Source: a virus. Taken from it: DNA of 64,000 nucleotides. The stretch lies in IMG/VR virus record IMGVR_UViG_3300045988_010396, positions 1-64,000 of that record; one strand, written 5' to 3'. How positions within the stretch are numbered: position 1 is the first letter of the stretch; every line of letters begins with the position of its first letter. The notes beneath the pieces are model-generated. The model worked only from the letters and a program-made list of their open reading frames with translations. It had not been told where the DNA came from and ran no database searches. The position numbers and the translations under genes are program-made. Of the stretch, positions 4,311 to 53,699 are shown piece by piece.

Positions 4311-4860
4311 ACCTATCTCTCCTTCCTATAAGAAGAGCATCTATGATGCCCTGTTTAATGTTATGCTTAAGTCTTAGTCTTAAGTCCTTATTGAAGACCA
4401 ACTCATAGAAAGACCTATTGTTGAAGTTAACATCTTCTTTGTTATAGAGCACCTTATATATCTCCTGTTCATCAAGTCTTAACAGAGTCTTGTCTTTATA
4501 TGCTTCCTCATCTTCATACCATAGCTTAAGAGTATTGTCCCAGTCTATAGGAAGGTTAGTCTTGACCTTACCATTCTCATCTATTCTGACTGACTTCTCA
4601 TACTTCCTTACTTCTATAGTACCCATTCTATGGGGTAGCTTAACCTCATTACCTGTCACTATATCATCAACAAGCAAGTTATTTATTTGCCTAATAATAG
4701 CAAAGTACTGTGACTCTGACAGTACATACTTCTTATCATCAGGCTTGTTCTTTCTATAGTATTTATAGCCAGAATATACACCAAGACTATTCCTTATCTT
4801 ATGCTCTCTAGGCATACTGGCTCTTCTTACTCTTTTCTTAAACTCTATAAGACTTTCCAT
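4300..4860 (-). CDS. hypothetical protein (basic, K/R-rich)
   Basis: 186-aa ORF, overlapping stop/start with neighbours. Confidence 0.5.
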   Translation of the reverse strand: MESLIEFKKRVRRASMPREHKIRNSLGVYSGYKYYRKNKPDDKKYVLSESQYFAIIRQINNLLVDDIVTGNEVKLPHRMGTIEVRKYEKSVRIDENGKVKTNLPIDWDNTLKLWYEDEEAYKDKTLLRLDEQEIYKVLYNKEDVNFNNRSFYELVFNKDLRLRLKHNIKQGIIDALLIGRRDRYGK

Positions 4861-5624
4861 TACTCAAGTTGTTTAGCAAGGTTTGACTTAGAGTTTCTCC
4901 TCACAAAGTCTGCCAATGTAGCAAATTCATCCTTAGCATTATTCTCATCATCTTCAGGAGTATAAGAAGCACTCCTTAATTCCTTCACTACCATTTGAAT
5001 TAACTCTGGAATTAAAGGCTCTTCTATAGGAAACTCCTTATCAAGTAAATCACAGGTATCATCACTATTATCACATGACAGCTCAGACATCTTTTCAGCA
5101 TCCTCAAAAATAGCAGAGAATCTTACCTTTTCTAAATATAGGTATTGAGGATTCCATGACTTGAAGTACAGATAACCATCAGGTGCTATAGAACAGTAGA
5201 TGATATTCTTCATCCACTTATTATAGCCTACATATCTCATCCTGTCTCTGCTTATATATGTTATCTCACCTTGATAGTAATCTATAGGATATACCCTAGG
5301 ATTGCCTACCATTAGAGTAACAGGTATTTTATCTTTACTCCTCAAGTATGAGCCTCCTTCACATACTTCACCACTAATAGCTGGAACCTCTATAAGGTCT
5401 AAGCATATAGTCTGATAGTTACTCTCTGGTATCTGTCTTCTTATATCTGAATATCTTTGCTTTAATAATAGTGCTCTATATTTGCCTAATAGAAAAGCAA
5501 TGTGCTCCTCTGTATAAGTGAAATCATCTGATGAGCCTTTTATCTCATCAAGAACCATGTATATAGCTTCTCTCCACTTCATTATATCTGTATATAAATA
5601 ATTAAACCTATTGCAAAGATACAA
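4860..5624 (-). CDS. hypothetical virion protein
   Basis: 254-aa ORF in structural block. Confidence 0.5.
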   Translation of the reverse strand: MYLCNRFNYLYTDIMKWREAIYMVLDEIKGSSDDFTYTEEHIAFLLGKYRALLLKQRYSDIRRQIPESNYQTICLDLIEVPAISGEVCEGGSYLRSKDKIPVTLMVGNPRVYPIDYYQGEITYISRDRMRYVGYNKWMKNIIYCSIAPDGYLYFKSWNPQYLYLEKVRFSAIFEDAEKMSELSCDNSDDTCDLLDKEFPIEEPLIPELIQMVVKELRSASYTPEDDENNAKDEFATLADFVRRNSKSNLAKQLE

Positions 5625-34411: not shown

Positions 34412-34858
34412 TTATAGAGAGCTATATTCTTTTGTAGCATCAAAGCTAGGGCAAGCTTTTGAGCTAAAGTCTCTGTGCCCATGTATAGATGCTTGAGGGT
34501 ACTTAGTCTTTAACTCCTTAAGTAACTTAACTAATGACTGCTTCTGCTGAGCAGTCCTAGTATCTTTAGGTGTCTTGCCATCAGAAGCACATCCTCCTAT
34601 ATAGCATACTCCAATAGAGTTAGCATTATGGCCAGCACAGTGTGCACCTATAATAGACTCATCTCTACCTGTATGTATAGAACCATCTCTATATATTACA
34701 TAATGATAGCCTATATCAGAGAAGCCCCTTTGAAGGTGCCACTGTCTTATAGTATCTACACTATAGTCTTTACCTTCTGGTGTGGCACTACAATGTACTA
34801 TTATTTCATTTATTTTTCTTGCCATACATATATTATAAAACTTATCATGTTCCCCCAC
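34412..34858 (-). CDS. N-acetylmuramoyl-L-alanine amidase (T7 lysozyme/PGRP family) endolysin
   Basis: IVHCSAT...GYHYVI...HGHRDFSSKACP zinc-ligand pattern of the amidase_2 fold. Confidence 0.7.
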   Translation of the reverse strand: MGEHDKFYNICMARKINEIIVHCSATPEGKDYSVDTIRQWHLQRGFSDIGYHYVIYRDGSIHTGRDESIIGAHCAGHNANSIGVCYIGGCASDGKTPKDTRTAQQKQSLVKLLKELKTKYPQASIHGHRDFSSKACPSFDATKEYSSL

Positions 34859-34922
34859 TAGGAGTCGAACCTAGCTCTCAGGATTAAAAGTCCAGAGTAT
34901 CCACCATCAATGCTTTGGGGGA
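34850..34922 (-). tRNA. tRNA-Lys(TTT)
   Basis: Acceptor tccccca/tggggga, T-arm ctagg-TTCGACT-cctag, loop cTTTTaa; one U-U mismatch in the anticodon stem. Confidence 0.7.
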
Positions 34923-37410: not shown

Positions 37411-37620
37411 TTGCCTTTGATAACATTCCTATATGATATGAAGAAGAACATTCTCATTGCGGTATTGGCACTAGTGGTGCTAGTACTTACAGGTGTTACT
37501 CTCTACCAAAGTGAGAGACTGAGTGCTGCCAAGGCTTATATCAATGACCTTGAGGCAGACTATCCTGACTACATTGATACCACTTCTGGAGGTGATGCAT
37601 ACTCAGAGTGGTATAACTAA
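37411..37620 (+). CDS. small membrane protein A (real start probably ATG at 37438)
   Basis: N-terminal TM helix plus conserved ..AKAYINDLE.D.P.YIDTTSGGDAYS.WY; paralog of 39276..39467. Confidence 0.45.
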   Translation: MPLITFLYDMKKNILIAVLALVVLVLTGVTLYQSERLSAAKAYINDLEADYPDYIDTTSGGDAYSEWYN

Positions 37621-37687
37621 CTCCTTCCTTACTTTTGACATTATTAACTTTGAACCTTATGGTGCTTAGGTCAACCATTATTCAGTT

Positions 37688-37969
37688 ATGAATCTGTTTT
37701 CTAATCTTAGGGTGTATGGTGGTAAGTGGTCTGAGAAGTCATCCAGACACTTCACTCAGGAAGAGCGGGCTCTTGTAGAGAAGGCTCAGGTAGTTGAGAG
37801 TCAGTATGGCTCATCATGCTGCTTCTTTATGAAGAACGGCACTACCATGTATGTTCCTATGTCTCAGGATGCTAAGTCTGAGGTAGGTGACATGGTAGAC
37901 CTGTCTTCTGCTGAGATTGTCACTCTGGAGAAGCAGGGTGAGCATGACATTCAGCGCATCAGAGGATAA
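37688..37969 (+). CDS. hypothetical protein B (93 aa)
   Basis: About 75% identical over its full length to 38347..38628 (MNLFS.LRVYGGKW.EK.SR.FTQEE.ALV.KAQVV.SQYG.SCCFFM.NGTTMYVPMS.DAKS.VGD...L..AEIVTLEKQGE.DIQRIRG). Confidence 0.5.
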   Translation: MNLFSNLRVYGGKWSEKSSRHFTQEERALVEKAQVVESQYGSSCCFFMKNGTTMYVPMSQDAKSEVGDMVDLSSAEIVTLEKQGEHDIQRIRG

Positions 37970-38125
37970 TAGTCCTCATAGTCATCAGACCTCATAGGAG
38001 AGTGGGAGTAATCCTGCTCTCCTTTATTTTTGAATGAATAATAAACAACAACATATGATTAACAAGCTATTATATCATCCAGACAGTGACTAACTAGGAA
38101 ACAACAACATATGATTATATAGCAG

Positions 38126-38141
38126 AGGCACTAACTCCTCC
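38126..38141 (+). promoter_or_regulatory. hairpin element copy 2 (stem gagg/cctc, loop CACTAACT)
   Basis: Conserved loop with a different stem than copy 1; preceded by an 18-nt direct repeat aacaacaacatatgatta (38044..38061 and 38101..38118). Confidence 0.4.
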
Positions 38142-38236
38142 CTTGATACTGGCTATACTATTTATTAGCTGACAGTAGAAGTAATAGTAGTAACTAACAA
38201 CAGCAAGATATGATATATTCAAGTATATCTTTAGAG

Positions 38237-38260
38237 CAAGGTCACTAACTCCCCCCTTGC
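38237..38260 (+). promoter_or_regulatory. hairpin element copy 3 (stem gcaagg/ccttgc, loop tCACTAACTccc)
   Basis: Third copy, about 90 nt upstream of the B' gene. Confidence 0.4.
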
Positions 38261-38346
38261 CCTTGCCTTGCATAGCTAATGCTAATAGTAGTAGCTGTGC
38301 ATGTGCACAAATAACATTTATCACATAACATTTAACATTTAGCACT

Positions 38347-38628
38347 ATGAACTTGTTTTCTAGTCTGAGAGTGTATGGAGGCAAATGGGCTGAAAAGGCT
38401 TCCAGAAAGTTCACACAAGAAGAGCTGGCTCTTGTAACTAAGGCCCAGGTGGTGGATTCCCAGTATGGTAACTCTTGCTGTTTCTTCATGGCAAATGGTA
38501 CAACTATGTATGTACCAATGAGCACTGATGCAAAGAGTGGGGTGGGTGACATCATCAACCTCAATGAGGCAGAGATAGTTACCTTAGAGAAGCAGGGTGA
38601 AAATGACATCCAGAGAATCCGAGGATAA
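38347..38628 (+). CDS. hypothetical protein B' (93 aa), tandem paralog of B
   Basis: See 37688..37969. Confidence 0.5.
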   Translation: MNLFSSLRVYGGKWAEKASRKFTQEELALVTKAQVVDSQYGNSCCFFMANGTTMYVPMSTDAKSGVGDIINLNEAEIVTLEKQGENDIQRIRG

Positions 38629-38896
38629 TCTGTAGTAAAGAGTGTGTACCACACATAGTGGTGCATAACTCTTTTTACTGTCTTTGCAGCAACAACAAAG
38701 TGGAGTGACTTATATAGTTACTCTACTTTGCTTGTCATTTTTCAAGTCAGTTATTCATTAAAAAGAGTTAAAAATGACACTAGGAGAATGGGTAGGAGTA
38801 ATCCTATGTATTGCACTTGTAATAGGTGCAATATGGGATATATGTACAGGATATAGCTCCAAAAATTAACACACAATACACACAAAATTTAAGAAA

Positions 38897-39283
38897 ATGA
38901 AAAAATATGCTGTACAAAGAATTGATAATGGTCAAGTAATTGATTATGTTGATTCGCCAGAACAAGCTTCATACTGGCTACAAATGAGTAATCCAAAGTT
39001 TGAATTGGTAGCTACTAATACCTCTAGTATCATAGTTACTTATACAGAACTTGAAGGACCTAACGGATATGGACACCAAGAAGAATCTTTTGCTACTTAC
39101 GGAGGAATTGTAAGATGTATCATTAATCTATATAAATGGGCAAACCAAGAAGCTTCTGTGTGGGGGCCTAATCCAATGGATATTAAAGGCTACCTTAAAA
39201 AATGCAATGTTATAGTAAATGGGCGAGACAAGACTGAGTGGTTTTTAGCTCAAGTAGATAAATTAAAGATAATGTATGTGTAA
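38897..39283 (+). CDS. hypothetical protein
   Basis: 128-aa ORF; its stop overlaps the start of A'. Confidence 0.4.
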   Translation: MKKYAVQRIDNGQVIDYVDSPEQASYWLQMSNPKFELVATNTSSIIVTYTELEGPNGYGHQEESFATYGGIVRCIINLYKWANQEASVWGPNPMDIKGYLKKCNVIVNGRDKTEWFLAQVDKLKIMYV

Positions 39284-39467
39284 GAATATAACCATTGTAG
39301 TACTCCTACTAATAGTAGGAGTACTTATAGGTATTTGTATCTACCAAAATGATACTATCAGTAGAGCTAAGGCATATATCAATGACTTGGAGAATGACTT
39401 CCCTGAGTATATTGATACTACCTCAGGTGGTGATGCTTATAGTGACTGGTATGAAAGAGTGAACTAA
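39276..39467 (+). CDS. small membrane protein A' (paralog of 37411..37620)
   Basis: TM helix plus ISRAKAYINDLENDFPEYIDTTSGGDAYSDWY. Confidence 0.45.
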   Translation: MCKNITIVVLLLIVGVLIGICIYQNDTISRAKAYINDLENDFPEYIDTTSGGDAYSDWYERVN

Positions 39468-41403: not shown

Positions 41404-41489
41404 ACTCCCTTAGCTCAGTTGGTTCCGCAAGGCTTGAGAGCATCGGACTTTTAATCCGAGGGTCATGGGTTCGAGTCCCATAGGGAGTA
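41404..41489 (+). tRNA. tRNA-Lys(TTT) with an 11-nt insertion in the D-loop (86 nt)
   Basis: Acceptor actccct/agggagt, anticodon arm tcgga-cTTTTaa-tccga, T-arm atggg-TTCGAGT-cccat; D-region gctcagttggtt-CCGCAAGGctt-gagagc carries an extra cc-GCAA-gg mini-hairpin. Confidence 0.55.
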
Positions 41490-41506
41490 CTATTCATTTC
41501 ATTCAA

Positions 41507-41826
41507 GGGGCTGTATTTGGTCTTGACTGGTGGCTACTTGGTATGAGGACATGCAGAGACTGATGGAGAGACATCAAAACTTTAGGTGGCAACAGAATTT
41601 CTGCACCTGTAGCTCTTGCTGCTTAAGCAATCTACTGAGTTAGTCACTGACTTGGAAACAGAATAGTGACAAGACAAGATTTCTTGCATAGATAAATGCA
41701 AGTGGTGGACTATGTTGACAATCCAGTCAACCCCAGCAGAGAACCAACTGCATAATAAAGTGGTAAGCATGTGTAATCCTTATATTGAGAGCTATTAGGA
41801 CAGGGGTTCGACTCCCCTCAGCTCCA
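41507..41826 (+). ncRNA. ssrA: tmRNA (ssrA-like), tag reading frame ending ...SAPVALAA-stop
   Basis: 5' end GGGGCUGUAUUUGGUCUUGAC matches the E. coli tmRNA 5' end GGGGCUGAUUCUGGAUUCGAC. 3' end ..GGUAAGCAUGUGUAAUCC..GGACAGGGGUUCGACUCCCCUCAGCUCCA matches ..CUAAGCAUGUAGUACC..GGACGCGGGUUCAACUCCCGCCAGCUCCA. Internal ORF ggt ggc aac aga att tct gca cct gta gct ctt gct gct taa (stop 41624..41626). Confidence 0.8.
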
Positions 41827-41902
41827 GAGGCACGTTGTTAGATACTTCCACGTAGTGTGCCTTGGGTTAAAAGCTAGATTCTAACAAAAAAAAAAAGATT
41901 AT

Positions 41903-42205
41903 ATGTTAATAACAGAAAGAGCAAAAAGGAAAATAAATACTTTATTAGATAGTACTAATGATTGTATAAACTATCCTAAAACTAATAAAGATGGTTATGG
42001 GGATATTCAAGAGATTGTGGAGGGTAAAAAGCTCCACATGTTAGCTCATAGAGTATCTTATCAGTTATATACAGGAGAAGACATATCACCTGATGATATA
42101 ATATGTCATAGATGTGATAATCCTGCTTGTATTAATCCTAGACATTTGTTCAGAGGCACTCACTCAGATAATATTAAAGATAAGGTTTGTACCCATTATT
42201 CATAA
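41903..42205 (+). CDS. HNH homing endonuclease (HNH_3 type)
   Basis: KDGYGDIQ...[11 protein letters not shown]...[24 protein letters not shown]. Confidence 0.6.
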
Positions 42206-42501
42206 GCGGTCGTAGCATAATTAGCGGTGACGCGGTAGTGGAATCCAATTACGACTATATTGTTTTCAAGAACTGGTGGTCATCAGGAAGATACTTTACA
42301 TGGACTAGAAGCAATGATATGTGGTGTGTTGGATGCTTCTACGGCACGGGCAAGGAGCTAATCGCTAAAGCCTACAAGGACAGCAAGGTGAGTGGTAGAG
42401 AGTATGAGAGAATAGTCAAATATGTAGAGCGGATTAAGAGAGACAGCAAGCCATCTTTGTGGCGGAGAATACTGTTTAATCTTAGCAAGCTCTGCAAATA
42501 G
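42187..42501 (+). CDS. hypothetical protein
   Basis: 104-aa ORF. Confidence 0.35.
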
Positions 42502-42523
42502 TATAAAATTAAACTACATCAGA

Positions 42524-42805
42524 ATGGCAAAGATTGTAAACAATGACAAGGGGTTCAAGGTAATCAGCTTGTCAACAGAGGATGCAGCATCTCTGGGCTT
42601 TGGTATAGATGGCTCAGGTACATGTATATGTATGCATTGTAATAAGGGGTGCCGTAGTGGAGACATCTATTACATTGCAGTGCTTCATGACACTATGTGC
42701 AAGAAGTGCTATGAGAGGTGGATTAAGTCTGCTACAAGGTATGCAGAAGATATACCCATTGAAAATAGGAACTTCAACCACTATAAGGAGTGGCTGTGTC
42801 TGTGA
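42524..42805 (+). CDS. Cys-rich zinc-binding protein
   Basis: CICMHCNKGC...CKKC. Confidence 0.35.
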   Translation: MAKIVNNDKGFKVISLSTEDAASLGFGIDGSGTCICMHCNKGCRSGDIYYIAVLHDTMCKKCYERWIKSATRYAEDIPIENRNFNHYKEWLCL

Positions 42806-43005: not shown

Positions 43006-44429
43006 ATGTGTTCAAAAGTTAATCCTAACCTAAAGCCTGTACCTAAGTTTGAAAACACTCAACTGGCAGGTGGTTATGGTGCATTAGCTGCCAGGCAGTC
43101 CAATGTAGCATTGCTTAGAAGAGCAGTGCTGGCTAATCTCCTTTGAGAGGATGTAGCATATATGGATGGTGAGAGAGTAGCCAATGAAATACAGAGGTTA
43201 ATACCTCTGTGCCCTGCTGAGGATGTATATAATATAGCTCTTGAAGCTAGGTTAATGCAGAAACTGAGGCATACTCCATTGTTTATAGCAGTGGAAATGT
43301 GCAAGTATCCTGAACATAAGTTATTTGTTAAGGACTTGCTACCAAAGATAGTTACAAGAGCTGATATGCTCACTGACTTCTTGGCTATATATATATATAT
43401 TGGAAGGATGGCAAGCATCCTATCTGTAACCAAGCTAAGAAGGGTCTTGCTCTAGCCTTCCACAACTTCAATGAGTATAAGTTGGCTAAGTATGACAGAG
43501 ATGCTGCTATCAAGCTCAGGGATGTGATGTTCTTGGTACATGCAAAGCCTAGAAACCAGTATGAGCAGGAGTTGTTCAATAAGGTAGCTGAGAGAACTCT
43601 CACACCACCTGAGACATGGGAAGTCATGTTAAGTAGAGGTGATGACAAGAAGGCTACTTGGACTAAGCTCATTACAGAGGGTAAGATTGGAGGTCTGGCT
43701 ATGTTGAGAAACATAGCTAATATGCAGAAGGCCAATGTGGATAGAAGGACTATCCAAGATGGCCTTAAGACACTGAGAAGCTCAATGCTATTACCTCTTG
43801 ACTTCTGGAAGGCTGCTAGAATGAACCCAGCATTTGAGAGAGACATTGAGGATGCTATGATAGAGGCATATAAGAACTTACCTAAACTTCCTGGCAAGAC
43901 ACTATTTATAGTGGATGTATCAGGTTCTATGGGTTTTTTAACCTCTGGTAGCTCTCAGTTCAACAGGATGGACCAAGCTTGTGCTATGGCTATCTTGGCA
44001 GCTAATCAGTGTGAGGACTATGAGCTTGTAGCTACAGCAGGTAATGATGATTCTAAAATAAGTGCCTCAGAGTGGATTGAATATCCAAAGAGAGGTTTTG
44101 CTCTTGCTCCACAGATAATGGATACCAGGCATAGGATTAGTGGTGGAGGTATATTCACCAGGCAGTGCCTAGAGTGGTGTAAGGATAAGTTCAAAGACAA
44201 GAAGTTTGATAGAATTATCATATTCTCAGACTCTCAAGACTGTGACTATCCTGAGAAGAGAGTACCTAAACCATTTGGTACATATAACTATATTGTAGAT
44301 GTATCTGCTCATACAAGAGGAGTGAACTACAAGGGTGTATGGACTGCTGAGGTTTCAGGCTGGTCAGAACATTTCTTGACTTATATTGCAGCTCTTGAGG
44401 GATTGCAGAATAAGTTTGAGGAGCAATAA
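43006..44429 (+). pseudogene. rsr: Ro60/Rsr-like protein (TROVE + vWA/MIDAS), interrupted by an in-frame TGA (43144..43146) and a frame change at (TA)7 (43386..43399)
   Basis: Frame 1 from ATG 43006 reads MCSKVNPNLKPVPKFENTQLAGGYGALAARQSNVALLRRAVLANLL-TGA-EDVAYMDGERVANEIQRLI..., resembling the Ro60 N-terminus (RLHRFL.FGSEGGTYY...ALIRLI). After the TA tract the open frame becomes frame 0 (..GKHPICNQAKKGLALAFHNF..), continuing through GLAMLRNIANM to the MIDAS motif LFIVDVSGSMG and stop at 44429. Track ORFs 43162..43455 and 43482..44429 are fragments of this gene. Confidence 0.6.
43386..43399. repeat. (TA)7 dinucleotide repeat at the frame junction of the Ro60-like gene
   Basis: tatatatatatata read directly; loss of one TA unit would fuse the two reading frames. 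Confidence 0.9.
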
Positions 44430-44581: not shown

Positions 44582-44715
44582 GAGGAGTTAGCTCAGAGGT
44601 TAGAGCAGTTAAACAAGACACTCTACATACTGTTCTCTAGTAATAGTAGTGATTTGTAGAGATACTTCAAGCACTTTCATTGCACAGGTCATAGGTTCGA
44701 GTCCTATACTCCTCC
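44582..44715 (+). ncRNA. tRNA-like RNA 1 with ~60-nt internal insertion; candidate Y-RNA-like tRNA mimic
   Basis: Perfect acceptor gaggagt/actcctc, canonical D-arm gctc-agaggtta-gagc and T-arm atagg-TTCGAGT-cctat, but no consistent anticodon arm. Insertion carries a 7-bp hairpin ctctaca/tgtagag and motifs agtagtg and tacttcaag. Confidence 0.5.
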
Positions 44716-44779: not shown

Positions 44780-44918
44780 GGCGGAGTAGCTAAATGGTTA
44801 AAGCAACACCCTTACAGAATTTATCTGGTAAAGCAGTAGTGGGTTGTCAGGGTTACTTCAAGGTTATAGCATTAGTTTTGGGTGCTAAAGAATGTAAGTT
44901 CGAGTCTTACCTCCGCCA
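44780..44918 (+). ncRNA. tRNA-like RNA 2 with ~65-nt internal insertion; candidate Y-RNA-like tRNA mimic
   Basis: Acceptor ggcggag/ctccgcc, D-arm gcta-aatggtta-aagc, T-arm gtaag-TTCGAGT-cttac; internal motifs tctggtaaagcagtagtg and ttacttcaag shared with RNA 3. Confidence 0.5.
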
Positions 44919-45127
44919 CTTATTTACCTACCTCACCTAGCATAGTTATACAGGATAAGACCCATTATGATGGAGCACCGATGAAACTATCCTAGCCACG
45001 CTGGTATTGCTATTCAGTGAGTGAGAAAATGAATAGCCTCGAAGCATAGTGGAGATAACGTCAAGGAGTACCATCCTTAGCAGCTATGTAAAATTGGTTG
45101 ACAATCTGGAAAGACAGATAATAAAAT

Positions 45128-45255
45128 GGGGGAGTAGCTAAATTGGTTACTATACTCTTGCTGTTATTCTCTGGAAGCAGTAGTGTTAGCAAAGAGTTAC
45201 TTCAAGCATTCATCTGGTAAATGAAAGTATATTGGTTCGAGTCCAATCTCCCCCG
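45128..45255 (+). ncRNA. tRNA-like RNA 3 with ~55-nt internal insertion; candidate Y-RNA-like tRNA mimic
   Basis: Acceptor gggggag/ctccccc, T-arm attgg-TTCGAGT-ccaat; motifs tctggaagcagtagtg and ttacttcaag; possible anticodon-like arm ttcat-cTGGTaa-atgaa near the 3' side. Confidence 0.5.
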
Positions 45256-51113: not shown

Positions 51114-52337
51114 ATGGATGTATTTGACAGGTCAATAGAGAAGCTCAAAGTCAGGAGACAAAGGATATTGGATGGGCAGATTAACTGTATTCCATTGCCT
51201 TTCCCTAGATTGAGAACCTGGTTGCCAGGTATTGAGAAAAGAAGATATACTATAGTTACTGCAAACCAGAAGATAGGTAAGTCAAAGCTAAGTGACTATC
51301 TGTATGTCTATGAGCCTTTCTTCTATATGATAGAACATCCTGACCAATTAAGGTTCAAGGTGCTTTACTTCACTCTTGAAATGGGAAAGGAAGAGAAGTT
51401 CTATGAGTTTCTCTGCCACCTGTTATATAGGTTGGATAACATAAGGATAAGTCCTACCAACCTTAAGAGTACAAATGCTGACAATCCTTGTCCTGAGCAT
51501 ATACTTGAACTCATTGAGAGTGAGAGGTATCAGGAGTATATAAGGAAGTTCAAGGAGACTGTCATCTATATAGATGATATAAGGAATCCTACTGGTATCT
51601 ATAAGAGAATCAGGGGGTTTATGCTTGAGAGAGGTCAGTTCCACTACAAGAAAGGTACTATTAAGGATGAGAATGGCCTTCCTATGGAGGTAGATGTCAT
51701 TGATTACTTTGAGCACACTGATGAAGATGAGTATATAGAGGTAATCCTTGATAACTATTCCAATCTTATGCAAGAGCAAGGTATGGATAAGAGAGCTACC
51801 ATTGAGAAGATGAGTAAGTATGCCATTGAACTCAGGGATAAGTTTGATATTCATTTCTGTGCTATCCAGCATCAGGCTCAAGCTCAGGAAGGTATTGAGA
51901 ATCAAAAGCTCAATAAGCTATATCCATCATCAGATGGTTTGGCTGACTGTAAGACCACCACTAGAGATGCCAATCTGGTATTAGGTCTGTTCAGTCCGTT
52001 CAAGTATGGACTTACAGAATATGAGAAGTACGACATAACCAGATTCAAGAACAACATCAGGTTCTTGATAGTCATTGAAGATAGGGACAATGGTGCTGGT
52101 GGCCAGGTATGCCCACTACTCTTTGATGGTGAGGTAAGTAACTTCTGTGAATTACCTCTTCCTGACAATAAGAGGGAGATTGAGTCAGCACTACAGTATG
52201 TAGAGCAAGTCATAAGAAAGAGGGCTACTCTAGTATTTATGATGTTCACAAGAGAGTTCTCAAGAGAAAAAAGAAAAGTAGTTAAAGGCTTGCACAGATG
52301 GTTCAATAGAAGTATCTTTGCAAGCAGAAACAAGTAA
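51114..52337 (+). CDS. P-loop NTPase, DnaB/RepA-like replicative helicase candidate
   Basis: Walker A TANQKIGKSKL, Walker B-like VIYIDDI; located in the replication block. Confidence 0.4.
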   Translation: MDVFDRSIEKLKVRRQRILDGQINCIPLPFPRLRTWLPGIEKRRYTIVTANQKIGKSKLSDYLYVYEPFFYMIEHPDQLRFKVLYFTLEMGKEEKFYEFLCHLLYRLDNIRISPTNLKSTNADNPCPEHILELIESERYQEYIRKFKETVIYIDDIRNPTGIYKRIRGFMLERGQFHYKKGTIKDENGLPMEVDVIDYFEHTDEDEYIEVILDNYSNLMQEQGMDKRATIEKMSKYAIELRDKFDIHFCAIQHQAQAQEGIENQKLNKLYPSSDGLADCKTTTRDANLVLGLFSPFKYGLTEYEKYDITRFKNNIRFLIVIEDRDNGAGGQVCPLLFDGEVSNFCELPLPDNKREIESALQYVEQVIRKRATLVFMMFTREFSREKRKVVKGLHRWFNRSIFASRNK

Positions 52338-52343
52338 AAGCAA

Positions 52344-52874
52344 ATGGCAAAAGCATTGATTTTAGCTAAGACTGGGTTTGGTAAATCCAGTTCACTGGTT
52401 GGTGTACCCTCTGCTGGTATATTAGGCTTGGACCCTAAGGAGACTTATCTCCTTAGCTGTGTTAATAAGCCTCTGCCTATCAAGGGTGCATCTAAGATTT
52501 ATGTGCCTATACCTATGCAGGGTATTACTCCTGCTAACTTAGGTTCAGTCATAGGTAAGGGCAACAGGATTATCACCAAGGATGCCAAGATTGTAGCTGC
52601 TGCTATAGAGTTGCTAATCAATTCACCCTTCAAGAACATAGTAGTTGATGATATGAACTATCTATCGCAGGACTACTATATGAAGAATGCCATGAAAGGT
52701 GGTTGGGACACTCCTAAGCAGATAGGTTACAATATGGGTCTTATCTTTGACCAGATTGACAATGTGCCTGAGGATAAGAACATTATCTGTATGGCTCACT
52801 TTGAGACCTACAAGGATAAGAATGGTGACTCCATCTCTTACAAGTACAAATCAACTGGTAACATGGTAGCATAA
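52344..52874 (+). CDS. small P-loop ATPase (Sak4/RecA-like candidate)
   Basis: N-terminal Walker A LAKTGFGKSS. Confidence 0.4.
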   Translation: MAKALILAKTGFGKSSSLVGVPSAGILGLDPKETYLLSCVNKPLPIKGASKIYVPIPMQGITPANLGSVIGKGNRIITKDAKIVAAAIELLINSPFKNIVVDDMNYLSQDYYMKNAMKGGWDTPKQIGYNMGLIFDQIDNVPEDKNIICMAHFETYKDKNGDSISYKYKSTGNMVA

Positions 52875-53084
52875 CATCTGCCATTATCTATCTAATTGCT
52901 GGAACACCCTAAAGACAACTGAACTACAAAGTAATTGGTAACAATAAGCTTGAATGTTTGAAAATCAGTTGTATTCTTAGTGATGGAGAAATGGGCAATC
53001 AGCAGCCAAGGGACTCTACGAGTTCAAGGTTCATCGACTATCCCCTGTTGTGGGGGAGTACATTTATAAAGTAATCAATTATAT

Positions 53085-53699
53085 TTGGAAATGGTAGACA
53101 ATAGAGAAGTACACATTTATGCATTAAGACATCCTGATACCTTAGAAATAAGGTATGTCGGTAAAACAGTGAGAAAATTAAGTAGAAGGTTAGGGAATCA
53201 TATTGCAAATGCTAAAGGTAACCAGCACAATAAGCATTTAAGTAATTGGATTCTTAATATCTTGAAGGAAAATAAGAAACCTGTAATAGAACTCTTGGAA
53301 ACTTGTCAAAGTAATAACTGGCAAGAAAGAGAGCAATATTGGATTTCTCAATTTCCTAATCTGATAAATCTCACTGCTGGAGGAGATGGATGTGTAGGTT
53401 TTATTCATGATTCTAAAGCTATAGAAAAGATTAGACAATCTAAATTTGGTACTAAACATTCTGTAGAATTTAAGGAAGCTATGAGTAAAAGGCTTAAAGG
53501 TGTGCCTCTTAGTGAAGAACATAAAAGTAAAATAGGTTTAGCTAATAAGGGAAGGAAGGCTTCGGAAACTGCAAGAAAGAGGCTATCAGAATCCCACAAA
53601 GGTATTACTCAGAGTGAGGAATCCAAAAGAAAAAGAAGTGAATCTATTAAACTTTGGTGGACTAAGAGAAAGTCTATTGAAGATATAGTCAAATCTTAA
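53085..53699 (+). CDS. GIY-YIG homing endonuclease with NUMOD3 repeats
   Basis: HIYALRHPDTLEIRYVGKT...R core; repeats LSEEHKSKIGLANKG, LSESHKGITQSEESKRKRSE. Confidence 0.7.
   Translation: MEMVDNREVHIYALRHPDTLEIRYVGKTVRKLSRRLGNHIANAKGNQHNKHLSNWILNILKENKKPVIELLETCQSNNWQEREQYWISQFPNLINLTAGGDGCVGFIHDSKAIEKIRQSKFGTKHSVEFKEAMSKRLKGVPLSEEHKSKIGLANKGRKASETARKRLSESHKGITQSEESKRKRSESIKLWWTKRKSIEDIVKS

Follow-up and report, generated by a model that had tools for sequence, protein, structure and literature searches.

The 64,000-nucleotide (nt) stretch of viral DNA analysed here (positions 1 to 64,000 of IMG/VR virus record IMGVR_UViG_3300045988_010396, hereinafter the window) contains a real, full-length gene for a transfer-messenger RNA (tmRNA, ssrA), as confirmed by the searches described below. 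Comparison with related phages makes it likely that the product is a working tmRNA acting in trans-translation, which belongs to a lineage specific to crAss-like (Asinivirinae-type) phages of Bacteroidales. The closest DNA matches of the tmRNA region are to cr106_1 (Mahstovirus), Kehishuvirus sp. 'tikkala' (host Bacteroides cellulosilyticus) and cr128_1 (Mahlunavirus), all of them members of Crassvirales/Steigviridae/Asinivirinae, and judged by these matches the window is from a gut crAss-like phage with Steigviridae/Asinivirinae relatives. The rest of the right arm has only patchy matches, to other Bacteroides crAss-like phages.

Identification of the tmRNA gene

A preliminary description of this DNA had proposed a phage-encoded ssrA-like RNA with the ends of a bacterial tmRNA, a conserved box before the T-arm and a tRNA-Ala-like acceptor and T-arm. 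ARAGORN, run on the window, called a tmRNA of 320 nt at exactly 41507-41826 on the plus strand, and the Rfam tmRNA family RF00023 matched 41507-41829 end to end (model positions 1-374) with 83.1 bits and an E-value of 9.6e-31. Membership in the family was judged against its gathering score of 47 bits, and with such a score and E-value a chance match is excluded. The unconstrained minimum free energy (MFE) fold of the gene recovers the same architecture at -106.8 kcal/mol (z = -3.84), with 0 of 100 shuffled sequences folding as well. The ends, the UAAGCAUGU box and the alanine-type acceptor with its G3:U70 pair were all found in the sequence (Table 1), and along with the phage context and the covariation among homologues they bear out what had been proposed. 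The CCA end is not encoded in the window gene, where CUCCA is followed by GAG. Since the ssrA genes of Bacteroides likewise lack it (there CUCCA is followed by CGA or CAA), CCA is expected to be added to the phage tmRNA post-transcriptionally.

The tag reading frame

The alignment to RF00023 places the tag region directly after the position of pseudoknot 1 (PK1), and there the window encodes the tag GNRISAPVALAA. The resume codon is GGC (41588-41590), preceded by the bases UUUAGGU, and the stop is TAA at 41624-41626. This is the internal open reading frame (ORF) ending in VALAA and TAA of the preliminary description, and it occurs at one and the same aligned position in all 69 homologous loci, which also supports the choice of resume codon. 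The U-5 A-4 element before the resume codon is of a type that helps to set the frame in Escherichia coli tmRNA. The most frequent tags in the family are DNTYRVAA (29 loci), GNTSYRVAA (17) and GNTYRAAA (11), followed by GNRISAPVALAA with five (the window, L007, L021, L030 and L045) and by single variants including AKSYRMTPALMAA and AEVDETPVRMAA. Altogether twelve tag variants are carried on one conserved scaffold, with the endings RVAA, RAAA, ALAA, LMAA and RMAA. Every one of them has a generic C-terminus of the hydrophobic-Ala-Ala type, a small hydrophobic residue followed by AA or VA. Length differences among the tags are of 3 or 12 nt, all in frame, synonymous AAC/AAT and GCU/GCA variants occur, and the stop is retained through a change from TAA to TGA in L047 and L068. 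Helix 5, which forms around the tag end, places a further constraint on the tag sequence.

ARAGORN had placed the tag elsewhere, as ASGGLC* at 41698-41718. We rejected this candidate: it lies inside the paired sequence of PK3/PK4, and its aligned first codon is TAG in most homologues (L005-type). Given that the upstream ORF is conserved in 69 loci and the ASGGLC* frame is not, the tag first read from the sequence is right and that of ARAGORN is a miscall.

A family of phage homologues and selection on the RNA

Two pattern scans of IMG/VR recovered 47 and then 67 contigs, mostly of 90-103 kb, giving at least 67 crAss-like carriers, and three GenBank Crassvirales phages also hold tmRNA homologues. 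All ten variants that were scored against RF00023 exceeded its cut-off, with 57-96 bits. The window gene is 97.5-99.4% identical to its closest relatives and 77-79% identical to the genes of other crAss clades.

For an analysis of covariation we used 38 distinct full-length sequences and a structure of 73 pairs in 12 helices taken from the window sequence. In the proposed helices 94.6% of the cells are paired, versus 38.5-46.9% when the partners are slid by 1-3 columns; drawing the structure from one of the aligned sequences favours the unslid register in this comparison, while a count of pairs that change on both sides rarely arises without structure. Such double changes are seen in 26 of the 73 pairs, with 171 compensatory cells, and none of 500 shuffles reached the observed values. 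The stems of the 7-bp acceptor and of the T-arm, whose loop is of the GUUCRANUC type, are 98.8-100% paired across the 38 homologues, both with compensatory changes, acceptor pairs 6 and 7 among them (AU/UA and UA/GC). Helices 2-3, including the CAUGC/GCAUG closing element, comprise 26 pairs that are 98.6-100% paired, six of them with compensatory change. All 38 sequences have the alanine identity pair G3:U70, and the discriminator A320 is invariant. The compensatory substitutions and the invariant G3:U70, as read from this alignment, show purifying selection on the RNA. In the ring of pseudoknots covariation backs the first stem of PK2, the hairpin at the PK3 position and both stems of the PK4-type pseudoknot; the second stem of PK2 (CUUG/CAAG) is tentative, being just 62-64% paired in the global alignment.

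In the cr128_1-type relatives a group I intron of ~870 nt (RF00028, 86.1 bits), with a minus-strand ORF inside it, splits the T-loop of the tmRNA after GGGUU, with the 3' exon CGAAUCCCUCAUGCUCCA found 880 nt further on. Joined together, the two exons restore a perfect T-arm, which argues that the mature RNA matters. Six intron-bearing and six intron-less alleles are distinguished in Table 1. The GenBank record of cr128_1 leaves the tmRNA unannotated.

Two variable regions of the RNA were also noticed. Where the first stem of PK1 would be expected, the window has purine repeats, AGAGAC ... GAGAGAC (41555-41572, alignment columns 49-67). The two repeats change together in the family (AGAGAC to AAAGAC) and are not Watson-Crick complementary, and their joint change may be due to common descent, or to a contact that is non-canonical or mediated by protein. 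Between PK2 and the hairpin at the PK3 position several relatives (L005, L008, L009, L021, L030 and others) carry insert modules of 65-145 nt (alignment columns 177-330), which are of several unrelated types and are absent from the window and from cr106_1-type genes. In the core, L021 and L030 match the window at 97.5% identity, yet their module is the one common to cr128_1-type genes, a pattern that suggests recombination or repeated loss.

Comparison with host ssrA and origin of the phage gene

To compare the phage gene with those of potential hosts, ssrA genes were retrieved by a pattern spanning the box before the resume codon and the tag end, which yielded those of Bacteroides faecis, B. 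xylanisolvens, B. reticulotermitis and other Bacteroidota, and identities were taken from pairwise alignment. The Bacteroides genes share with the phage gene the glycine GGC resume codon, the AUCAAAACUUUAnnUGGC and AUCAAAACUUUA boxes, a UUUGAC-type D-loop analogue and the ending GCU CUU GCU GCU UAA (ALAA), in identical codons. They differ in their length of 395 nt versus 320 nt (the phage gene being 75 nt shorter), in having a proper PK1 and larger PK2-PK4 where PK1 of the phage RNA is a hairpin, and in their tags GETNYALAA or GENNYALAA, versus the 12-residue GNRISAPVALAA. The phage gene is streamlined, the more so for lacking one pseudoknot module that close relatives carry between PK2 and PK3. 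Identity to Bacteroides ssrA is 65-70%, versus 77-99% to other phage copies. Recent capture from a host is therefore rejected, and the gene belongs to a phage lineage of Bacteroidota type that is old and has been kept by vertical descent. The 3' ends of ssrA genes in bacteria are well known as sites of integration, and an ssrA fragment left at an attachment (att) site was considered as well; it is rejected by the full length of the gene, by the same 65-70% identity and by the neighbouring ORFs examined, which include no integrase.

Predicted function and alternative readings

We propose that the tmRNA is made as part of a tRNA-tmRNA precursor along with the neighbouring plus-strand genes of the early/replication arm, from which host RNase P and 3' processing enzymes would excise it; the tRNA-Lys gene just upstream is likely to be co-transcribed and processed with it. 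A host nucleotidyltransferase would then add CCA, and host alanyl-tRNA synthetase (AlaRS) would charge the RNA with alanine by way of G3:U70, the determinant being present in the sequence and the charging itself predicted. With host SmpB and EF-Tu the charged RNA would enter stalled ribosomes, translation would resume at the GGC at 41588, as set by U-5 A-4, in the frame identified by comparison, and A-GNRISAPVALAA would be appended to the nascent chain, its host-like ALAA end presumably directing the tagged product to host proteases. The likely benefit is an added capacity for ribosome rescue in infected cells: the phage is AT-rich and brings at least 17 tRNAs of its own, and it might thereby overload or mismatch the translation system of the host, while truncated mRNAs probably arise in infection and cleavage of mRNA or tRNA by phage or host nucleases might give rise to non-stop complexes. 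The roles first suggested for the gene, tuning trans-translation or compensating for a host state, are conjecture. For PhiCrAss001 a GC content of 34.7% is given versus 42.5% for its host (PMC6235969), and a similar argument was made for the translation genes of huge phages by the authors who described them (PMC7162821). Reassignment of a stop codon as the reason for keeping a tmRNA found no support, as reading TGA, TAG or TAA as sense gives no specific gain in long ORFs, and the in-frame TGA of TROVE is, by comparison with intact relatives, a mutated TGG.

Several observations weigh against a working tmRNA. A tblastn search of the window with E. coli SmpB found nothing (best E 1.4), so the function would depend wholly on compatibility with host SmpB. 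For the first stem of PK1 no Watson-Crick partner was found, only the second stem GAUG/CAUC being present, and PK1 is the most important pseudoknot in E. coli tmRNA. The phage gene scores 83 bits in RF00023 versus 141-143 bits for Bacteroides ssrA. Using blastn the gene was not found in PhiCrAss001, DAC15 or the PhiCrAssBcn phages, pointing to a patchy distribution, and in the Kehishuvirus tikkala copy (L002 3995-4300; OQ198717, record positions 87750-88044) the last 14 nt are replaced (…GUCC|AACCAUCCCCACAA), so that the pairing of T-stem and acceptor is broken and G3:U70 has become G:C. This copy is called by neither ARAGORN nor Rfam, the record having two hypothetical coding sequences there, and tikkala is the one cultured carrier that was found. 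From the patchy distribution and the broken copy it follows that the tmRNA is dispensable for at least some relatives. Finally, two neighbours of the gene in the window, the TROVE and HNH genes described below, appear to be decayed, which makes regional decay or assembly error a possibility.

Some of these points can be qualified. Some tmRNAs have no PK1, and in E. coli a hairpin can take its place; hence we read the reduction of PK1 as a variant feature rather than as exclusion from the tmRNAs. Unlike its TROVE and HNH neighbours, the tmRNA itself shows no lesion. As for SmpB in other phages, its matches in the phage database come from prophage-edge records and records of Prevotella-hosted phages, with five 'uncultured' matches left out.

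A more far-reaching interpretation, which we regard as rather unlikely, would make the tmRNA and the variant tRNA-Lys an anti-defence or takeover cassette, in which the tRNA-Lys evades host anticodon nucleases and the tmRNA clears ribosomes stalled by cleavage of tRNA or mRNA and perhaps imposes a phage-specific fate code on the tagged products. Its only bases are the adjacency of the two genes and the diversity of the tags. Its starting point is the private, streamlined tmRNA lineage of crAss-like phages with its diversified tags (RVAA, RAAA, ALAA, LMAA and RMAA).

That the tag itself is the point of the system, so that a working tmRNA would place a phage fate code on its products to redirect them, protect them or serve a phage factor, appears quite unlikely. 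The tag is indeed the most variable functional part of the RNA, and the host tags GETNYALAA and GENNYALAA are not among the twelve variants; however, all of them keep the hydrophobic-Ala-Ala end expected for host proteases, the window tag ends in the ALAA of the host in identical codons, helix 5 constrains the tag as well, and near the gene no phage protease or adaptor was identified. We consider it very unlikely that the RNA serves mainly as a decoy and, in place of ribosome rescue, ties up SmpB, EF-Tu or AlaRS of the host and thereby damps host trans-translation. Such a role would be consistent with finding no SmpB in the window, with the reduced PK1 and with the shortened pseudoknot ring, and it has a precedent in mycobacteriophage DS6A, for whose RNA consisting of only the tRNA-like domain (TLD) a decoy role was proposed; an RNA of this TLD-only kind is noted to inhibit tmRNA strongly (PMC4131195). 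A decoy, however, needs no reading frame, and here the position of the tag ORF is constant across 69 loci, its indels are all in frame, its stop is retained and U-5 A-4 is conserved; helix 5 and most stems of PK2-PK4 covary. Very unlikely, too, is a non-functional relic, be it a captured copy of host ssrA, an att-site remnant or a landing pad for homing endonucleases and introns: the classic use of ssrA 3' ends for integration, the mobile DNA drawn by this locus and its patchy distribution would fit, but the gene is full length, is closer to the phage copies than to Bacteroides ssrA, and has many compensatory substitutions together with an invariant G3:U70. A working tmRNA thus remains the reading we prefer, and its conserved gene is evidently a hot spot for mobile DNA, as seen in the HNH cassette of the window, the T-loop intron of the cr128_1 type and the replaced 3' end in tikkala.

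Relation to known phage tmRNAs

The preliminary description called phage tmRNAs rare. They are uncommon, but they have already been catalogued in mycobacteriophages, Bacillus phage G, huge phages and cr106_1. In cr106_1 (Mahstovirus faecalis, MT774378 / NC_055871) the orthologue is annotated as 'transfer-messenger RNA, SsrA' at the same position of the genome arm, and as in the window it has tRNA genes before it, a TROVE gene after it and the same scaffold, scoring 74.3 bits, above the cut-off. It differs from the window gene in length (302 nt versus 320 nt, with about 77% identity), in its tag DNTYRVAA with an aspartate GAC resume codon versus GNRISAPVALAA with a glycine GGC, in its helix 5 and in having no HNH cassette at the 3' end. 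More distant parallels are the tmRNAs of the mycobacteriophages (Bxz1, Catera, Cali and others) and of Bacillus phage G (PMC4131195; PMC1475703). These are likewise lytic or large phages in which many tRNA genes accompany a full tmRNA, although they belong to unrelated phages and host phyla and are independent acquisitions. Huge phages count tmRNA and SmpB genes among their translation genes (Al-Shayeb et al. 2020, PMC7162821). There, as here, a phage-borne component of ribosome rescue is part of a wider set of translation genes, but those phages exceed 200 kb and sometimes encode SmpB, whereas the phage of the window is of ~100 kb with no SmpB found in the window.

A group I intron in the T-loop is also known from bacterial tmRNA genes, having been reported for Clostridium botulinum. 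It resembles the intron of the cr128_1-type genes; the window gene is intron-less.

Full-text searches of the literature for tmRNA in crAss-like phages, whose coverage is incomplete, gave only mentions in the context of software or methods. Hence, while phage tmRNA itself is known, the family-level picture of crAss-like tmRNA appears not to have been described before. It leaves the understanding of the working principle of tmRNA unchanged. The crAss-like phages are among the most abundant human gut viruses and their handling of host translation is poorly understood; one whole subgroup of them has a conserved, structurally intact tmRNA on which purifying selection acts and which has a tag set of its own, with no SmpB found in the window. 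Ribosome rescue might accordingly be a pressure point in Bacteroides infection. The analysis also corrects annotation, in that ARAGORN reads the tag of this lineage wrongly and overlooks those variants that are longer or contain an intron.

Table 1. Coordinates of the tmRNA gene, its structural elements and associated features (window positions unless a locus is named)
Feature	Position	Strand	Evidence and remarks
tmRNA (ssrA) gene	41507..41826	+	320 nt, G1 to discriminator A; ARAGORN, RF00023, MFE fold
Acceptor stem 5' strand GGGGCUG	41507..41513	+	Pairs with CAGCUCC 41819-41825; includes G3:U70
Helix 2 5' strand (CUGGUGGCU, UUGGUAUGAGGA, CAUGC)	41527..41554	+	Pairs with 41767-41798
PK1 position, hairpin only (GAUG/CAUC, loop GAGAGA)	41561..41576	+	One compensatory pair, AU to UA
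U-5 A-4 before resume codon	41583..41584	+	T77 and A78 invariant in family
Tag frame GGC AAC AGA AUU UCU GCA CCU GUA GCU CUU GCU GCU UAA = GNRISAPVALAA*	41588..41626	+	Aligned with tags of 69 homologues
Helix 5 hairpin around tag end and stop codon (GUAG...CUAC, UUGC/GCAA)	41608..41635	+	MFE fold, inspection
PK2: GUCACU/AGUGAC and tentative CUUG/CAAG	41643..41678	+	First stem 100% paired
Hairpin CUUGCAU/AUGCAAG at PK3 position (helix 8)	41683..41702	+	5/7 pairs compensatory
PK4-type H pseudoknot UGGA/UCCA and GUUGAC/GUCAAC	41706..41731	+	Helix 9 98% paired; helix 10 5/6 pairs compensatory
Terminal hairpin GCAG/CUGC before helix 2 closing strand (helix 11)	41736..41751	+	100% paired, 2 compensatory pairs
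Conserved UAAGCAUGU box, 3' strand of helix 2d	41764..41772	+	RF00023 alignment, family alignment
T-arm AGGGG-UUCGACU-CCCCU (helix 12)	41802..41818	+	100% paired, 4/5 pairs compensatory
tRNA-Lys(UUU)-type gene, 14-nt D-loop insertion (contains CCGCAAGG)	41404..41490	+	Rfam tRNA 66.3 bits, [14] insertion
680-nt cassette, HNH endonuclease gene apparently split (41903-42205, 42187-42501)	41827..42506	+	Pfam HNH_3 4.8e-7; phrog_1872
Intron-split tmRNA	L003 (cr128_1) about 4430-5310; also L010, L031, L034, L044, L082		Intron-less alleles L008, L011, L019, L027, L036, L049

Genome context and neighbouring genes

The genome in the window has the two-arm layout typical of such phages, with a GC skew that flips near 37-38 kb and an array of 17 tRNAs on the minus strand at 33.3-36.3 kb, and it is AT-rich (GC about 0.29-0.42). 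The plus-strand arm encodes an SPFH protein, a glucosaminidase, an SNF2-type helicase, a DnaB-like helicase and a primase. The tmRNA lies ~4 kb into this arm, co-oriented with closely packed small ORFs, and replication functions are found in the same arm. The scan of the window for promoters and terminators gave nothing informative; sigma-70-like sites were fewer than in shuffles, in a scan that covers neither Bacteroides nor phage promoters.

The tRNA-Lys gene that the preliminary description had noted directly before the tmRNA is indeed there, of the UUU type with an insertion in its D-loop, and ends 16 nt upstream of the tmRNA. ARAGORN reports it untyped, as 'tRNA-???'. The same arrangement is found in L007 and L045, and a second, normal tRNA-Lys(UUU) is encoded in the window at 34849-34922. 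In other lineages a different tRNA-like gene, unusually long at 86-88 nt, occupies the spot before the tmRNA (L001 3904-3991, L030 3299-3384, L066 4766-4851).

The HNH cassette on the other side starts at the very base that follows the discriminator. L021, L030 and L045 lack it, whereas its start is shared with L007 and L024. Of its two overlapping ORFs, 41903-42205 is the one matched by Pfam HNH_3, and 42187-42501 matches only the C-terminal part of phrog_7964, so that the two probably represent one HNH gene split by a frameshift. In L021, L030 and L045 the tmRNA is followed after 14 nt by a homologue of ORF 42524-42805.

A Ro60/Y-RNA-like locus had been placed about 1.2 kb beyond the tmRNA. 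The TROVE/Ro60 half of this holds, as the frame starts at 43006, 1.18 kb on, whereas Rfam reports no Y-RNA family near TROVE, even at E<=1. The TROVE/Ro60 gene (43006-44429, plus strand) is disrupted in the window by a change from TGG to TGA at 43144-43146 and by an 8-nt (TA)n expansion that shifts the frame at 43386-43399, and intact TROVE ORFs of 471-479 codons are found in L021, L030, L075 and cr106_1. On this comparison the gene is a pseudogene in the window genome, though the lesions could be assembly errors. The RNA-centric island that had been suggested is weaker in this genome, because a nonsense codon and a frameshift inactivate TROVE.

The next gene, directly after TROVE, is tRNA-like, 134 nt long (44582-44715, plus strand; Rfam tRNA, 43.4 bits) and has 74 nt inserted in its anticodon arm; it may be a tRNA with an intron or a Y-RNA-like RNA that partners TROVE. 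Similar elements of 131-139 nt are present in L021, L030 and L024. In the window it is followed by a tRNA-Pro and a partial tRNA-like match (44846-44919 and 45187-45247).

Further along the plus-strand arm the DnaB-like helicase has a group I intron (52774-53699, plus strand; RF00028, 51 bits) that interrupts it, contains a GIY-YIG/NUMOD3 homing endonuclease ORF at 53085-53699 and lies just downstream of the helicase ORF 51114-52337. Near the strand switch a series of tandem paralogous small ORFs extends over 37411-39467 on the plus strand, among which 37688-37969 and 38347-38628, each of 93 amino acids, are clearly similar to each other. Two further members, 37411-37620 and 39276-39467, are membrane-anchored and both end in ...DTTSGGDAYS.WY.

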